A DNA stretch of 21,109 nt from a virus (lineage: Duplodnaviria; Heunggongvirae; Uroviricota; Caudoviricetes): IMG/VR virus record IMGVR_UViG_2695420876_000008, one strand, 5' to 3'. The notes below the pieces were generated by a model, which did no database searches, was not told where the DNA came from, and saw only the letters and a list, made by a program, of their open reading frames with translations. The translations under genes were made by a program, and so were the position numbers. Shown here piece after piece: positions 904 through 19,144 of the stretch. Numbering within the stretch: the stretch's first letter is position 1; each line of letters opens with the position of its first letter.

Positions 904-1353
904 CGAATTTCTCCCGTGTACAGGAACAGAGTTAAAAAGCCGGAACCGGAATCAAATTACAGGATGGCCATCTGCCAGTGGCTGGTCGTAAAAAAAAGGC
1001 CACGCCATGCGCAGCCGGAAATAAAGGGATAACGATGATAGTTTGAGAAAAACAGAAACAACACTTTTGTGGCAAAGCATGGTGCCGGGTGCCTCCCGGT
1101 GAATTCAGTATCAGCACCTGAATCCGCGATTATCCCATATACCTGGTTGCTGATCGCCCCTCCGCACAGGGGGATTCACCATGCCAGTTTCTTTTAACAA
1201 ACTCCCCGCAAACCAGACAACAGTCAACCGCCTGAATTGTGAGGTATTTAAAAATTTCAACGGGTAACTGATACCCTGCTAATCGCCTGATGCTTTCTTT
1301 TTCAGCAACGGGAAAGCAACAACCACCACACCCACCAGCCGCCCATTTACCAC

Positions 1354-3981: not shown

Positions 3982-5640
3982 TTACTGACTCAGACTGTTT
4001 ATATTTTTCTGGAGTTGGTGCTTTGCCTGCATGATGCGCCAGGCCTCACTGCCTGCCGGTATCTCACGTCGTTCATCACGTTCCTGAGATAAATCAATCG
4101 TTGTTTGTGCGTTTTCAGTGACCTTCTGAACCCGCTGGTGGCCTTTGGCAAACCGGATCAGTTTGTGTCTGATGTAGTTATTTACCTCAGGGGTAATTTC
4201 CATCGGAAAGTTACTCAGTCCGTCAGGCCACTCACCGAACTTTTCCCGGAAAGTGTGAGCACACCATCCGTCACTGACTGGACGCCCCAGCGAAGCACGC
4301 TGGCGCTGATAAAATTTGATCTGACTCCACCAGGACTGTTTCTCTGCCTTCGTCGACTGATGCTGATTTTTACCCAGCTTATTAAGTTTGCGGCTAGTGT
4401 CAGTATCAACGTCTTCACCTCGCAGCGGCTTGTGTCCACATTTCGGGCAAACATAGACGCCTGCTGGCTTCATGTAGTGGCATTGAGGGCATTCATGTGG
4501 CAGTTTTTCGGCCCGTTCCTCAACTGCCCGGCGCGCGCTTTCCTCCATGCCGTCAGACTTACCGGGAAGCTCGTCGTACTCGATTGAATCCGGATAACCC
4601 AAACGGTGCACGGTGCCGCTGTGATCGAAGATAAGGCAGGACTCTTTACCCGGTGCGGTGCGCAGCCCACGCCCGAGAGCCTGCAACCAGCGAATTTCGC
4701 TTTTTGTTGGCCTGGCGTAGATGATGCAACGAACGTCACTATCAAAGCCGGCCACCAGAACGCCCACACTAACGATGATTTTCGTTGCACCGGTTTCAAA
4801 GCGGTGAATGATGGTCTGGCGCTCATCTACCGGAGTGTCGGCGGTCATTACCTCAGCGTTAACACCCGCCAGGTTAAACTGGATTGTCAGATAATTGGCG
4901 TGAGCTACGTTGACGCAGAAAGCGATGGTAGGTAAATCCCGACCATTCTCCAGCCAGTTCTGTACGATGTCGCCCACCAGCGTAGAGCCGCACATGATTT
5001 CAGCCAGCTGTGTTTCGTTGTAATCGCGGCCGTACTCAAGCGAAGATGTGGTTTTAACACCTTTCAGATCCGGCTTAGTTGGCGCGTAAAATTCGTATTT
5101 ACTCAGATCGCCACGCTGGATTAACTCGCCGATGGTGGTCGGCTTAATCAGTCGGTCATAGTATTTGCCCAGGAACGGAGAAAACGGAGTACCCGACAGG
5201 CCAATCACCTTTACGCCTTTGCCGCGCAGACGTTCGATATCCTTCAGGATGCGTTTTTTACGCAGGTGCGCTTCGTCGATAATCAGCAGATCGATATTTT
5301 CAGGAAAAACACGACGAATAAGCGTGTCAGCGCTGGCAATCTGAATTTTCCGGTCCGGATCGTAGTTCGGGTGATCCGCCCAGATATAACCGATTTCATC
5401 TCCAGGTAAACCATACTGCACGAACCGATTAGCCGTCTGACCAATCAGGATGGTGTACGGAACACAGAACAGAACACGCATACCACGGCTGACAAAACCA
5501 GCAACTATGAAGGCTGCCAGACCCGTTTTACCGCTACCTGTTGGCGAGTAAACCATGAAGGTGTCGTTTGCCTTCCAGTCACGGCGCAACATGTTTAACG
5601 CTCGTTCCTGTGCAAAATTCGGCGTGATCGTCAGCTCCAT
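3982..5640 (-). CDS. Superfamily-2 DEAD/DEAH-box helicase, replication module, with C-terminal Cys4 zinc-ribbon
   Basis: Walker A YSPTGSGKTGLA; motif II LLIIDEAH; SGTPF; motif VI QALGRGLR; CPQCH...CPKCGH. SD GGGAG 7 nt upstream of ATG 5640. Confidence 0.85.
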   Translation of the reverse strand: MELTITPNFAQERALNMLRRDWKANDTFMVYSPTGSGKTGLAAFIVAGFVSRGMRVLFCVPYTILIGQTANRFVQYGLPGDEIGYIWADHPNYDPDRKIQIASADTLIRRVFPENIDLLIIDEAHLRKKRILKDIERLRGKGVKVIGLSGTPFSPFLGKYYDRLIKPTTIGELIQRGDLSKYEFYAPTKPDLKGVKTTSSLEYGRDYNETQLAEIMCGSTLVGDIVQNWLENGRDLPTIAFCVNVAHANYLTIQFNLAGVNAEVMTADTPVDERQTIIHRFETGATKIIVSVGVLVAGFDSDVRCIIYARPTKSEIRWLQALGRGLRTAPGKESCLIFDHSGTVHRLGYPDSIEYDELPGKSDGMEESARRAVEERAEKLPHECPQCHYMKPAGVYVCPKCGHKPLRGEDVDTDTSRKLNKLGKNQHQSTKAEKQSWWSQIKFYQRQRASLGRPVSDGWCAHTFREKFGEWPDGLSNFPMEITPEVNNYIRHKLIRFAKGHQRVQKVTENAQTTIDLSQERDERREIPAGSEAWRIMQAKHQLQKNINSLSQ

Positions 5641-5927
5641 TGTGCAGCTCCCGTGCTGATGAGATAATAATTTTGTGATGTGGTTTTCATGGATTCCCCC
5701 TCACATGGCTGGTGGCCTCCCCAAAGGCTGCCAGCCTCCCTTCTGATTCAGCTCCTCTGAAAAATCACTCTTCCAGGAAGAACCCTTTTCGTTTCTCAGC
5801 GCCTGAGCGCTTTGTACTACCTTGCTGATACGGGCGTTTTTTTAAATTGCGCCCTTAAGACAGTGATCTACTTAACCAATGGATCTCTCCTGTTGGAAAA
5901 GACCCTATTCCTGCCCCAACACCCAAT

Positions 5928-5945
5928 CCCCCCTTACCCCCCTTA
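5928..5945. repeat. Tandem CCCCCCTTA x2 inside a C-rich block (5914-5956) in the 410-bp intergenic region
   Basis: Direct reading: aat CCCCCCTTA CCCCCCTTA CCCTCTTCCCC. Confidence 0.6.
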
Positions 5946-6053
5946 CCCTCTTCCCCATAAAAACGTACTACTTCCCTAGTACACATGAGGAGTTGGGTCA
6001 GTTGGTTGCCAACCTGAACAGGCACCTTTAAGCCTGCTTCTGTTCGGGTACCT

Positions 6054-6362
6054 TTAAACCCGAAACAGTGAGGAGCGCGATTGCGATCCAGCCAGGGGAG
6101 GTTCGGCTGTATACCCCTGTAAAGCTCTGCCCTGATTTCTTACAAACAGGCGGAGCCTTGTGTTTGCTTCGTGCCTTGCTCTGTTCTCCTTGCGGAATGA
6201 AACAGGCTCAGCGTCAAAAGTGATTTCGTATACCTCCGCATATTTCAGGGCAACCTTCCGTCTCAGTGACGGAGGCAGCCCCTGTAACTGCTGCTGAATC
6301 CACTCTTCGTCTGCCTGGCAGTACCTAGATGGCATCTCTGTCTGAACGTAATTCTGGGACAT
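6054..6362 (-). CDS. Small regulatory protein in the cII position (possible CII/YdaT-like analogue; function unassigned)
   Basis: 102-aa ORF immediately downstream of the Cro-like gene on the same strand, overlapping it by 38 nt; SD GGAGGTGAA upstream of ATG 6362. Confidence 0.5.
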   Translation of the reverse strand: MSQNYVQTEMPSRYCQADEEWIQQQLQGLPPSLRRKVALKYAEVYEITFDAEPVSFRKENRARHEANTRLRLFVRNQGRALQGYTAEPPLAGSQSRSSLFRV

Positions 6363-6612
6363 ACAAGCCCTTCACCTCCCCCGTGCGCGCTAAGCTTGGA
6401 TGTGGAAAAAGCTCTGGTAGGTCTGGCCGAAATTCATACGCTTGGATCTTTCCGTCGACAGCTGCAACCAATAACGGCACAAATTCTGGTGAAATCTTGT
6501 TCTTGCAGTTCAACCAATCGCAGACTGTTGACTGGGCCTTTCCGCATCGCTTGGCTAAGGCTTGCTGACTTCCAAGAATCTCAATAGCTTTCTCTATGGC
6601 TTTATGTTTCAT
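6325..6612 (-). CDS. Cro-like repressor (YdaS-type HTH)
   Basis: MKHKAIEKAIEILGSQQALAKRCGKAQSTVCDWLN...AYEFRPDL resembles the YdaS/Cro-like HTH pattern as recalled. Start chosen at ATG 6612 with SD AGGAG 8 nt upstream, not the track's 6663. Divergent from the CI-like gene. Confidence 0.75.
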   Translation of the reverse strand: MKHKAIEKAIEILGSQQALAKRCGKAQSTVCDWLNCKNKISPEFVPLLVAAVDGKIQAYEFRPDLPELFPHPSLARTGEVKGLYVPELRSDRDAI

Positions 6613-6634
6613 AATCGCATCTCCTATTGAACGC

Positions 6635-6663
6635 ATAATAACAACAGGAAAAGCGATATTCAA
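6635..6663 (-). promoter_or_regulatory. Candidate pR-like promoter for the Cro-like operon
   Basis: Minus strand: -35 TTGAAT (plus 6658-6663), 17-nt spacer, -10 TATTAT (plus 6635-6640), about 20 nt upstream of the cro SD. Confidence 0.4.
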
Positions 6664-6679
6664 CGTTAAACATAGAATA

Positions 6680-6699
6680 TTTATCGGAAAGCCGATAAA
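6680..6699. promoter_or_regulatory. 20-bp perfect palindromic operator candidate, TTTATCGG-AAAG-CCGATAAA
   Basis: Perfect 8-bp inverted arms with 4-bp spacer between the divergent cro-like and cI-like genes. Confidence 0.55.
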
Positions 6700-6731
6700 C
6701 TAGCCAAGATAGAGAGGGGAGGAAAATCGCA

Positions 6732-7424
6732 ATGACATTTTCAGAACGACTTGATTTAGCTATGCGCAACGCAAAATTTACGCAAGGTAGGCTGGCCAAA
6801 GAAGTGGGTATGGCTCAGTCCAGTGTTAATCAACTACTTAACAAAGCCAACGGTTCCAGAAAAACAGTCGAAATAGCAAAAGTTTTGGGCGTTAACCCGG
6901 AATGGCTCGCATCGGGTGTTGGCCCAATGGAAATCGTGACCTCTGCAGACTCACACCAAATACGTAACATTTCTGAAGATTGGGTTACTGATTCGTATGT
7001 CGTGGATGTTTTAGACATCAGATATAGTTGCGGACCTGGTAGTTATAACTCTGATTTTCCTGATATTGTCAGATCTATAGCGATAGAACCAGGATACGCA
7101 TCAAGAGTTTTTGGCGGCAGACCAGCATCAGCAATCAAAGCAATAAACGCCCACGGCGACAGTATGAAAGGCACAATAGACCCTGAAGACTTGGTATTTG
7201 TAGATGTATCAGTTCGCACATTTAATGGTGATGGTATATACGCCTTTACATACTCTGGAACATCGCACATCAAAAGACTTCAAAAAATCAAAGATACTCT
7301 AACGGTGATATCTGACAACCCAGCTTACAAGGATTGGGCTATCGAACCGGAAGACTTCGAACAACTTCACATTGACGGAAAAGTAATTGTCAGTTGGCCT
7401 ATGACACTACACCGTTTTGCATAA
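6732..7424 (+). CDS. CI-type prophage repressor (N-terminal HTH + C-terminal LexA/S24 autopeptidase domain)
   Basis: HTH segment QGRLAKEVGMAQSSVNQL; S24 catalytic motifs GDSM and HIKRL; SD GGAGG 9 nt upstream. Confidence 0.9.
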   Translation: MTFSERLDLAMRNAKFTQGRLAKEVGMAQSSVNQLLNKANGSRKTVEIAKVLGVNPEWLASGVGPMEIVTSADSHQIRNISEDWVTDSYVVDVLDIRYSCGPGSYNSDFPDIVRSIAIEPGYASRVFGGRPASAIKAINAHGDSMKGTIDPEDLVFVDVSVRTFNGDGIYAFTYSGTSHIKRLQKIKDTLTVISDNPAYKDWAIEPEDFEQLHIDGKVIVSWPMTLHRFA

Positions 7425-17395: not shown

Positions 17396-19144
17396 TTATG
17401 GTAGCATCATTGATACATAATCCACACCAATCCTTGAGCTATACTGAGACGCTATAGCCTGATATCTTTCTGCATAACCAGTTCTCAGTTGAGATTTAAG
17501 TTTGAGTCGGACAGGAACATTTTGCACGTTGCCATCCATATTACTTAAAAACACGGCAGAAATAATATTTTTTTCTTCGCCATCAACTGTTGTTCCATGA
17601 TTCAACACCACCATATAATCAACAACAGGAAGCGTTTTATCCCCTTCGAAAATAGAGAGATATTTTCTTTGATTTTTATGCATTACATATATATATTTCG
17701 AATGTTCAGCAAATGGCAATGCTTTACTCTGACTGGCGTTAAAAAGCTCCAGAACTTTAATGAGCCTGTGCGGACTTAATCTTACATGGTGAGGGTCGTT
17801 ACCCTGAGTAGGAACCAAATCACATGCCGCAGATACACATAAATACCATTTGTTCGACTCTGTATCAAAGAAAATAGTGCCAGTAGAAATATGACCATCT
17901 TCAAAATTCTTTGAAGACAAATTCATATTTAAAGCATGATACATTTCGTGATAAGTATCATTATTTGATGGCAGATCCATTTTTGAAGAGCAATATTGGA
18001 GCAATGCAGCAACTCCGCTGTTAGCGTATTCATTTGAATAGCTATCAAAAACACTTTTGATAAATTCATCCAGCGTATTATTATTTTTAAGTCTTTGATA
18101 AAGCTCTTCTGATAAATTACCAAATACAAAGTCAATATTTCTACATCTAATATCAGGCGAGTCTGATTTTAATATCTCATTTAACCACGCAGCTTGACCG
18201 TAATGATCGTTAGCCAAATGATTTACAAAAGATAAAGCCTCAGCTTCGATTGCATTCTGAATTTCAGATTTTATTAACTGATAATAAGATGGTTTCCATT
18301 CAATGAGAGAATCATTGAGAGTTTGCCAAATCCTATCTCCATCGTTTTCATGATCATCTTGAACCTTATGAAATAGGGAGACAAAGATATTACCACATTG
18401 AATCCATTTTACTCCGCTTTCATCACCCCGAATGACATTGCCAGATGTGTTGCTAGAAATAATTGCATTTCTAGACACAGCATATTCTGCAATCATTTTT
18501 GCAATGAAGTTTTTATCCTTTTGTTCCTCCAACACAGCATCATCATGTATTAATCTTTTAATTCTTCTACAAGGCTTACTGTCTTTAATATAGGCTATTG
18601 TTTCATCTCTTGTGAGAGCTTTATTACCATTATCATTTAAGTTCGGTAATACAACGTCTTCCCAATAACTTTGGACATCTTCATTATCGTAGTCAATGAT
18701 CAAGCTGTTGATATCCAGAGCACCTTTGAGAGTCGATGATATCTGCATCCAAACCGTTTCTAAATTCTCTCTAGTATATATTACAATCATATTTAAATGA
18801 TCGGAGTCTTTCAAATCTTGTAATAGTTTAAGTGTTTTATCAGGTGCATTATTATCAAGATGATAATCTACAATAATAAGATCTGATTTTCTAATCCGAT
18901 CCACATCGAAATTAACAGAACCATTGTCAACATCACAAATCATATTTTTAGATTGAAAAAAGCTCTCAAGAGTAGCGGCTCGTTTAGATGAGTCAATTTT
19001 GTTGTAGTCTAAATCAACTTCGTTATTCAACGCCCTGATTGATTCAGAATACGTCAGAAAATCGTCATCAATCATGACAACGGAACGAATTGCATTTTCG
19101 CAGAAAGTTTTCTGGACAAGAGAATTATAATTTGCCACTGTCAT
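17396..19144 (-). CDS. Receiver (REC-like) domain protein fused to a ~430-aa C-terminal domain of unknown function; no DNA-binding output domain recognised
   Basis: N-terminal REC-like motifs VVMIDDD, DLIIVDYHL, MIVIYT; large uncharacterised C-terminal region. Start at ATG 19144 preferred (SD GGAG upstream; one nt after the kinase stop) over the track's 19162. Confidence 0.7.
   Translation of the reverse strand: MTVANYNSLVQKTFCENAIRSVVMIDDDFLTYSESIRALNNEVDLDYNKIDSSKRAATLESFFQSKNMICDVDNGSVNFDVDRIRKSDLIIVDYHLDNNAPDKTLKLLQDLKDSDHLNMIVIYTRENLETVWMQISSTLKGALDINSLIIDYDNEDVQSYWEDVVLPNLNDNGNKALTRDETIAYIKDSKPCRRIKRLIHDDAVLEEQKDKNFIAKMIAEYAVSRNAIISSNTSGNVIRGDESGVKWIQCGNIFVSLFHKVQDDHENDGDRIWQTLNDSLIEWKPSYYQLIKSEIQNAIEAEALSFVNHLANDHYGQAAWLNEILKSDSPDIRCRNIDFVFGNLSEELYQRLKNNNTLDEFIKSVFDSYSNEYANSGVAALLQYCSSKMDLPSNNDTYHEMYHALNMNLSSKNFEDGHISTGTIFFDTESNKWYLCVSAACDLVPTQGNDPHHVRLSPHRLIKVLELFNASQSKALPFAEHSKYIYVMHKNQRKYLSIFEGDKTLPVVDYMVVLNHGTTVDGEEKNIISAVFLSNMDGNVQNVPVRLKLKSQLRTGYAERYQAIASQYSSRIGVDYVSMMLP

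Follow-up and report, generated by a model that had tools for sequence, protein, structure and literature searches.

The DNA examined here (the window) is a 21,109-nucleotide (nt) stretch of a Caudoviricetes virus (IMG/VR record IMGVR_UViG_2695420876_000008) and corresponds to an Escherichia coli prophage with 100% identity to strain VR50 and others. A gap at 5641-6053, for which no feature is annotated in RefSeq, lies 5' of the gene for a superfamily 2 (SF2) helicase, and all genes flanking it are on the minus strand. Judged by sequence comparison, the minus strand at 6064-5814 is a conserved, non-coding module of approximately 250 nt (hereafter, the element). The best-supported reading is that the element is the replication origin of an 'Eru1-type' module, composed of the SF2 helicase and a Toprim primase and lacking an initiator protein of its own, a reading that we regard as somewhat likelier to be right than wrong. 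The block around G6-TAA-G6 is proposed as the working core. The reading draws on linkage of the element to the module, constraint on its sequence, substitution in its slot by a mutually exclusive RepL-like initiator cassette, the missing initiator, and the presence of the core motif at other origins, where it lies beside iterons. An earlier note on this gap had suggested an iteron-type origin or a regulatory RNA; the origin is retained on these grounds, and its iteron-type form is not. Replication origins are known as a kind, and the new part would most likely be an undescribed type that is initiator-less and based on G-runs.

Conservation and linkage to the replication genes

Loci of the family were gathered using a conserved 22-nt pattern, the seed for which was drawn from the GATC/GGTTA(A/G)GTAG segment at 5862..5885, and the helicase protein. 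Viral contigs, GTDB genomes, and GenBank phages together yielded several hundred loci. Without exception, true family loci had the gene order phrog_852, element, an optional 122-aa phrog_1347 gene, SF2 helicase, and Toprim primase; in the window, phrog_6204 is a further neighbour of the replication genes. No initiator-type gene was found among the seven neighbouring proteins of the window that were scanned using PHROG and Pfam. With nhmmer, the element was still found 5' of helicases at down to ~66% identity. Compared with phage Fostie, the element had 92% nucleotide identity, and the adjoining phrog_852 protein had 68% (range 62-70%).

The elements fell into at least five architectural types. 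A paired G-run (G4-9-N1-3-G5-9) with polymorphic run lengths was present in 180 loci, 133 of which had the exact 15-mer GGGGGGTAAGGGGGG. Absence of the repeats from related phages had been named beforehand as grounds for abandoning the origin, and the core is kept in ~180 loci. One or more GATC pairs were conserved across types, including type E, which is without GGTTAAG. Nearly all of the 48 sequence variants found for GGTTA(A/G)GTAG had an adjoining GATC.

The window helicase is 66% identical to Eru1A of the Shiga toxin 2a (Stx2a) phage TL-2011c, in which a divergent copy of the element (GGGGG-TAA-GGGGG ... GGTTAGGTAGATCACTGT) is located 5' of gp29 and gp30. This copy is common to 98 phage records, mostly Stx2a-converting, that include phages derived from O104:H4 and O103:H25. 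The TL-2011c homologue of the phrog_852 gene (~18663-18954 in NC_019442; ~1727-2018 in our locus L276) is unannotated in RefSeq, and the gene was present in all related loci examined. Eru1-type modules replicate the Stx2a phages of the strains behind the O104:H4 (2011) and O103:H25 (2006) outbreaks, and the level of phage replication affects toxin dose; a mapped origin would open the replication of Stx2a phages to experiment. The papers that defined Eru1 treat proteins only, contain none of the terms 'ori', 'iteron', 'intergenic', and 'non-coding', use 'origin' in other senses, and state that neither the process by which Eru phages replicate nor the proteins engaged in it are known (PMC8044961, PMC8951638). 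No report of an origin or RNA at this locus was found in the literature.

Replacement by a RepL-like initiator cassette

At the loci of some helicase homologues, the phrog_852 gene was kept and the element was replaced in the same slot by the gene for a RepL-like winged-helix initiator (Pfam RepL, 27.7 and 29.4 bits at a cut-off of 20.3; PHROG 'replication initiation'). Sixty loci were fetched using the helicase of a relative: 32 had a RepL-like gene without the G-run, 27 had the G-run without RepL, and one was of a third type. A RepL-type helicase (L243/L275) was 91% identical to a helicase of the G-run type (L248) and only 64-68% identical to other helicases of the RepL type, so that helicase phylogeny does not account for the split. 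Taken with the mutual exclusivity, these identities point to the two cassettes as interchangeable partners of one helicase-primase machine.

Two of the RepL-type slots (L211, 969-1011; L208, 921-985) have an inverted/direct repeat, TCCCACAGTATGGGA, in two copies along with TTTAAAA-rich repeats directly 5' of the RepL-like gene, and these repeats may serve that cassette as iterons or operators. A third slot occupant was seen in L241 and L205, which have neither the G-run element nor RepL. It encodes a 277-aa phrog_36786 protein, joined in L205 by an HNH endonuclease, and the gene is preceded by GGGATCGGTGGTGATGGGATCAC and two GATC sites.

The core motif in unrelated phages

The exact 15-mer occurred 97 times in 94 unrelated viral contigs. 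In 43 of the 97 copies it was located in long open reading frames (ORFs) on the C-rich strand, where it was read in three frames (PPLPP, TPLTPQ, and PPYPP), and at least 22 of these ORFs were linked to PHROG-confirmed initiators. Ten of the ORFs were scanned, and seven to eight were replication initiators or loaders, from at least five PHROG families; the Pfam types among the initiators that bear the 15-mer were Phage_rep_O, DUF1376, HTH_36, and Lin1244_N.

Synonymous sites were tested with a degenerate-codon scan that allowed every possible coding of TPLTPQGG, since close relatives of one initiator (L319) were too alike to inform. It yielded 91 loci, which fell into 47 unrelated clusters. The free positions were C in 82-88 of the 91 loci; leucine was encoded by CTT (67), CTA (20), or CTC (4) and never by CTG, and CAA (79) prevailed over CAG (12). 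These near-fixed synonymous positions indicate that A-C6-T(T/A)A-C6-AA-G5 is constrained at the nucleotide level. Those cluster representatives that were inspected had tandem repeats, followed by a short A/T-rich spacer and then by the motif. Two genes with the motif are genuine Phage_rep_O members (110.7 and 121.4 bits), one of which, L412, has lambda-type ori iterons; ori-lambda sits at exactly this position in gene O.

The 15-mer was also observed in another setting, in which GGGGGGTAAGGGGGG directly follows a sigma-70-like promoter (TTGACA-17-CATAAA) 5' of terminase/portal genes (L277, L283, L289, L330, L333, and L370; also L292 and L321). The terminase/portal genes were identified by eye, and this would be a second, non-replication context of the motif.

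In the window itself, an iteron-type origin is very improbable. An initiator would bind the ACCTTTAA and CCCCCCTTA direct repeats and melt the A/T-rich palindrome core, and these repeats and the A/T-rich 13-mer do adjoin the replication genes. However, each repeat has only two copies, and at least three at regular spacing would be expected; ACCTTTAA, whose two copies form the loops of covarying hairpins, is found only once in the Fels-1-like and type C loci shown; and the second TAA-G6 unit consists of a spacer and a run whose length varies. There is no cognate initiator gene in or beside the element, and relatives that bear an initiator use other repeats and are without the element.

Folding, covariation, and rival readings

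Folding was compared with dinucleotide shuffles and gave z-scores of -3.6 for the minus strand and -5.0 for the plus strand. The segment 5902-5964 was the top G4Hunter segment of the 21-kb window (-2.4, plus-strand score), and on the minus strand it had the highest G fraction of the window (54%, with one C in 63 nt). A canonical intramolecular G-quadruplex motif (at least four G-tracts of at least three, with short loops) was present in the window, which has seven tracts, and in types A, C, and E.

Among 55 distinct homologous hairpins, 92.2% of positions were paired, compared with 72.7% in shuffled and 22-48% in slid controls, and six of the seven hairpin stem pairs varied on both sides. Compensatory changes included CAGGC/GCCUG to CAGGU/ACCUG in hairpin 2 of ENT39118 and GGGCG/CGCCC to GGGCA/UGCCC at the clamp of the A/T-rich 13-mer in Fels-1 (features in Table 1). 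On the sense strand the stems had 45 G-U and only 7 A-C pairs, an excess which implies that the hairpins form as RNA or, just as well, as non-template DNA once that strand is displaced. Little or no covariation accompanied the sequence conservation of the GTACTAG palindrome, GGTTARGTAG, the GATC sites, and the A-run. For a candidate pairing of CUGACCCAAC with GUUGGGGCAG, co-variation of CUG/CAG with CUA/UAG was noted by eye.

The main rival to an origin, which we judge unlikely, is a cis-acting structured RNA in the early-right transcript that would act on the helicase-primase message (its elongation, termination, processing, or stability) or be bound by a phage protein (e.g., the phrog_852 product), with no origin function. 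It would agree with the position of the element on the sense strand within the operon, the folding of that strand (z = -3.6), the covarying stems and their 45 G-U to 7 A-C pairs, the phrog_852 gene that is always directly upstream, and the weak hairpin and U5 of type A. Specific recognition is suggested by the invariance of the loops UUAAAGGU and AU.GGUUARGUA, and a CUUAA/UUAAG kissing pair is possible. However, the downstream gene and its distance vary by lineage (the helicase at 60-240 nt, or the 122-aa gene), which argues against translational control, and the most conserved parts (G-runs of 5-9 without a specific partner, GATC pairs, and the A tract) have no clear role in an RNA. Such an RNA also leaves unexplained the replacement by an initiator cassette and the presence of the 15-mer beside iterons in initiator genes at opposite transcriptional polarity. 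In Rfam 15 there was no match in 5500-6200 at gathering thresholds, and hits with E up to 10 were only noise of 12-16 bits. In favour of the regulatory RNA suggested earlier are the G-U wobbles, found only on the transcribed strand; neither a promoter nor a terminator for a separate small RNA was detected in the scan.

Least probable of the readings is a small RNA with a gene of its own, or an antisense RNA like oop that would be transcribed from the plus strand over the end of the 'cII-position' (phrog_852) gene. The position is analogous to that of lambda oop, the plus strand has the z-score of -5.0, and one plus-strand terminator-like hairpin was called at 6019-6036. This hairpin is, however, hairpin 2 in reverse reading, in which the wobbles become A-C mismatches; a scan of 5400-7000 detected no promoter-like site on either strand inside 5641-6053; a C-rich plus-strand RNA would be unstructured; and no Rfam family was matched.

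Improbable as well is a double-stranded DNA regulatory region without origin function, that is, an array of protein sites (the GTACTAG palindrome and half-sites, GGTTAAGTAG, and a Dam-sensitive GATC pair) through which a phage or host regulator would set early-operon expression or the timing of the lysis-lysogeny choice. GTACTAG/TAGTAC is repeated ~150 nt apart and conserved with almost no covariation, GGTTA(A/G)GTAG and GATC are conserved where the surrounding stems are not always, and both strands fold equally, as expected for palindromic DNA sites. Fixed loops with changed stems and the asymmetry between G-U and A-C pairs nevertheless point to a single-stranded form, no promoter-like site is present in the element, and the initiator-cassette substitution and the link between core motif and origins are unexplained.

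Other candidates were tried and rejected. Apparent long-range pairing of the pyrimidine-rich 5' flank with the beginning of the G-tract was compositional (16.8 enclosing pairs, and 14.1 with a shuffled flank). An intrinsic terminator at the GUACUAG hairpin had an A/U-rich stem and a U5 that is missing in Fels-1-type and L182-type relatives, and the scan called no terminator on the minus strand of the element. The put RNA of HK022 comes as a related pair, with one copy following each early promoter; a put-type antiterminator RNA was rejected here, as no element motif recurs in the 21-kb window, leftward early operon included.

Proposed mechanism and comparison with known origins

Under the origin reading, lifting of CI repression would allow the promoter at 6663-6635 (minus strand) to transcribe the cro-like gene, the phrog_852 gene, and then the element. 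The site, which is upstream of the cro-like gene, was the sole promoter-like site within 5400-7000 in the promoter/terminator scan; gene order suggests that transcription from it may read through into the element. The G-rich transcript or non-template strand would then form an RNA:DNA hybrid and/or a G-quadruplex on the C-rich template and hold the duplex open. On the displaced sense strand, the phage helicase/primase would recognize or enter at the UUAAAGGU-loop hairpins and the GTACTAG palindrome, and two GATC sites and the A7 tract would lie within the zone to be opened. As both the transcript and the non-template strand are G-rich, a transcription-driven R-loop or G-quadruplex is plausible, and the R-loop step is given about half the weight of the origin reading itself. 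The sequences themselves show conservation, linkage to the module, substitution in the slot, strand-specific hairpins, and the tie between the motif and origins; origin activity, R-loop or G-quadruplex formation, and helicase-primase loading are what we infer.

Several observations weigh against this reading. The mutual exclusivity with RepL speaks for interchangeability of cassettes and not for origin function per se, and a functional mRNA element would be equally expected to have sense-strand-biased hairpin covariation. Elements of the Fels-1 type and of type D (TL-2011c) have only two long G-runs, so that a canonical three-tier intramolecular G-quadruplex is not universal. The sole A/T-rich stretch is 13 nt long, and the A5-8 run, which is present in types A, B, C, and E and in L182-like elements, is absent in type D. 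Copies embedded in initiator genes have the G-rich strand antisense to the mRNA, a polarity opposite to that of the window, and an R-loop of G-rich RNA therefore cannot be the shared mechanism; the shared role of the 15-mer is probably a property of the DNA, e.g., a structure-prone G/C block or a factor-binding site. GC skew tracked gene orientation only and was uninformative, and the sole small 'plasmid' with the module was a complete 42.9-kb phage genome and not a minimal replicon.

The 15-mer is identical to conserved sequence block 2 (CSB-2 or CSB II) of vertebrate mitochondrial DNA, the plus strand of the window, CCCCCCTTACCCCCC, being that of gecko and frog CSB-2, AAACCCCCCTTACCCCCC (PMC6295329). 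At CSB II, a G-rich RNA forms a hybrid G-quadruplex and R-loop, ends transcription, and gives a primer (PMC3488243, PMC6317783). The element is alike in polarity, with a G-rich transcript and non-template strand, and in adjoining replication machinery of the helicase-primase type. The G-run lengths of CSB II are reported to be polymorphic, like those of the phage family. Unlike the mitochondrial system, the phage is served by a bacterial polymerase and not a T7-like RNA polymerase, and its element adds hairpins, a palindrome, and a GATC pair, with only G4-A-G5 in some lineages; homology is unsupported, and the 15-mer can arise independently. Literature searches with the motif strings returned mitogenome and i-motif nanotechnology papers only, and no phage paper was found.

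In ColE1 there is no plasmid-encoded initiator; a transcript from an upstream promoter is used, an rG/dC stretch is essential for the hybrid, and the displaced strand exposes helicase/primase entry sites (PMC4412123). The element likewise has a G-rich transcript over a C-rich template at the proposed initiation site, and initiation without an initiator of its own is what is proposed on the phage side. It differs in having no RNA I-type antisense control, no dedicated promoter found, and its own SF2 helicase and primase in place of Pol I, PriA, and DnaB. The pMB1 origin, with the sequence GGGGGG...GGAAAAACGCC, resembles G6...AAAAAAACGCC of the window, with sequence similarity limited to short runs.

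At T4 oriF and oriG, a transcript is used as a persistent hybrid (PMC4412123). These are phage origins with R-loop priming, as proposed for the element, but their parts are a dedicated middle promoter and an A/T-rich unwinding element, without G-runs. T4 UvsW is an SF2 helicase that acts on R-loops; by sequence, the window helicase matched UvsW (2oca) weakly (E = 3.7e-4) and was closer to RadD (E = 3.4e-20).

Origins embedded in initiator genes (ori-lambda; Phage_rep_O, DnaD-like, DUF1376, HTH_36, and Lin1244_N) can share the 15-mer, as C6-T(T/A)A-C6-AA-G5 after iterons and an A/T-rich spacer, and the element is like ori-lambda in lying downstream of a CI-controlled rightward promoter. In contrast, the window has no iterons or initiator gene, its motif is of opposite polarity, and there is no adjacent complementary run; lambda itself is without the 15-mer motif.

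A wider proposal, which is tentative and in our view doubtful, is that G6-T(A/T)A-G6 is a widespread core of phage origins that would act through non-B DNA (G-quadruplex, i-motif, or R-loop) on the CSB II principle. It would make a sequence-specific initiator dispensable in Eru1-like phages, with CI-controlled transcription triggering initiation and the SF2 helicase and primase loading on the structure. An initiator-free origin exchangeable with a RepL-type cassette would be a clear case of transcription- or structure-driven initiation in a bacterial virus beyond ColE1 and T4. The 15-mer, found beside iterons in at least five initiator/loader families, could serve as a simple predictor of phage origins, and its identity with CSB-2 would be a testable link between phage and mitochondrial priming.

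Features of the locus and the helicase leader

Coordinates of the features are collected in Table 1. On the sense strand the gap has three parts, namely the conserved module (6064-5814), matches to gene ends (5813-5745), and the helicase leader (5736-5631).

Table 1. Genes and sequence features around the gap, in order of minus-strand reading
Feature	Position	Strand	Remarks
CI-type repressor gene	6732-7424		divergent transcription
YdaS/cro-like gene	within 6663-6325	minus	
phrog_852 gene ('cII-position gene')	6362-6054	minus	102 aa
Hairpin 1, UUCGGGU-(UUAAAGGU)-ACCCGAA	6043..6064	minus	phrog_852 stop UAA (6056-6054) in loop
Hairpin 2, AGCAGGC-(UUAAAGGU)-GCCUGUU	6017..6038	minus	invariant 8-nt loop as in hairpin 1; other stem, covarying
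Palindrome GTACTAG-N5-TAGTAC	5965..5982	minus	sequence conserved, little covariation; followed by U5 (5963-5959) in window lineage
Purine/G-rich tract GGGGAAGAGGGUAAGGGGGGUAAGGGGGGAUUGGGUGUUGGGGCAGGAAUAGGG	5903..5956	minus	seven G-tracts; near-invariant in type A loci
Core 15-mer GGGGGG-TAA-GGGGGG (plus strand CCCCCCTTACCCCCC)	5928..5942	minus	universal family feature
Conserved block CUUUUCCAACAG	5890..5901	minus	directly 3' of G tract
GATC-CATTGGTTAAGTA-GATC-ACT	5862..5885	minus	GGTTA(A/G)GTAG (GGTTAAGTAG in window) between Dam sites 5882-5885 and 5865-5868
GGGCG-(CAAUUUAAAAAAA)-CGCCC	5832..5854	minus	GC-clamped A/T-rich 13-mer with A7 tract; A/T maximum of region
GUAUCAGCAAG-GUAGUAC	5814..5831	minus	third TAGTAC half-site; end of module
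Match to 5' end (UUCCUGGAAGAG) and 3' flank of 122-codon phrog_1347 gene	5745..5813	minus	
Hairpin GGCUGG-CA-GCC-(UUUGGGGA)-GGC-CA-CCAGCC	5707..5736	minus	inverted-repeat search; minimum free energy and centroid folds; common to Fels-1-type loci
Shine-Dalgarno GAGGGGG (5702-5696) and 19-codon upstream ORF MKTTSQNYYLISTGAAQWS-stop (5690-5631)	5631..5702	minus	
SF2 helicase gene (ResIII + Helicase_C)	5640-3982	minus	
Zn-ribbon/Toprim primase gene	3980-3012	minus	

The repeats listed in the earlier note were all present, with coordinates off by 1-15 nt. The tandem CCCCCCTTA x2 was located at 5928-5945, inside the C-rich block given for it; the palindrome GGGCG-TTTTTTTAAATTG-CGCCC at 5832-5854 (given as 5831-5856); the ACCTTTAA repeats at 6024-6031 and 6050-6057 (given as 6021-6028 and 6046-6053); and GTTGG-ttg-CCAAC at 6001-6013 (given as 5986-5998). 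The GCCTCCC copies at 5715-5721 and 5734-5740 are the arms of one hairpin. A repeat search also gave a 21-nt direct repeat (6014-6034 and 6040-6060).

The same note had described the gap as free of ORFs. A pseudogene or coding reading of 6064-5814 was rejected, as its ORFs of 50-56 codons cross G-runs whose length differs between homologues, so that their frames would shift; these are probably not genes. The description overlooks a conserved 19-codon ORF at 5690-5631 (minus strand). The 'cII-position gene' is not a cII homologue and belongs to phrog_852, a family without an assigned function in PHROG. The protein has no Pfam match and no PDB relative by sequence, and its AlphaFold model, of three helices at a predicted local distance difference test score of 55, is too poor for a fold search. 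The phrog_852 ORF of the window is 5 codons longer than those of most relatives (6054-6071, minus strand); the usual TGA stop is replaced by TCA, and the ORF thus ends at the UAA within the loop of hairpin 1. Neither tRNA nor tmRNA genes were found.

By sequence, 5813-5631, with its strong Shine-Dalgarno sequence, is separate from the proposed origin and comprises sequence left over from, or a motif of, an accessory gene since lost, and the helicase leader with its probably coupled upstream ORF. The TGA of the 19-codon ORF overlaps the helicase ATG (5640-5638; junction ATGGAGCTGA), which suggests translational coupling and, with it, a role of this ORF as the translational-coupling leader of the helicase. 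It is kept with synonymous or conservative changes in types A and B (window-type and Fels-1-type) and is absent in other types. The phrog_1347 gene fills the place of 5745-5813 in Fels-1, phi467, and TL-2011c and is absent from the window, where the matching sequence may have been left by a deletion or be a conserved motif.

The phrog_1347 accessory protein has 122-125 aa and is encoded between the element and the helicase in Fels-1 (STM0899; L004, 3179-3547) and TL-2011c (gp29; L276, 2227-2604). Its 'IDCLV...AIEVDKR' resembles, by eye, a PD-(D/E)XK nuclease motif, and it has no Pfam match. A motif YUYCUGGAARAGU (TTCCTGGAAGAG) was observed at ~5765-5785 (minus strand) of the window, with equivalents in L182-L189 and in type C and type E loci; it lies 45-110 nt 5' of the helicase start where the 122-aa gene is missing and otherwise within the 5' end of that gene, and may be either a functional palindrome or what a deletion left behind.

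Elsewhere in the window, 1041-1213 (minus strand) gave a full-length Rfam match to the small RNA STnc100 (RF02076; 108 bits, with a gathering score of 47), which is placed 3' of the replication genes, toward the Q-like/late region.

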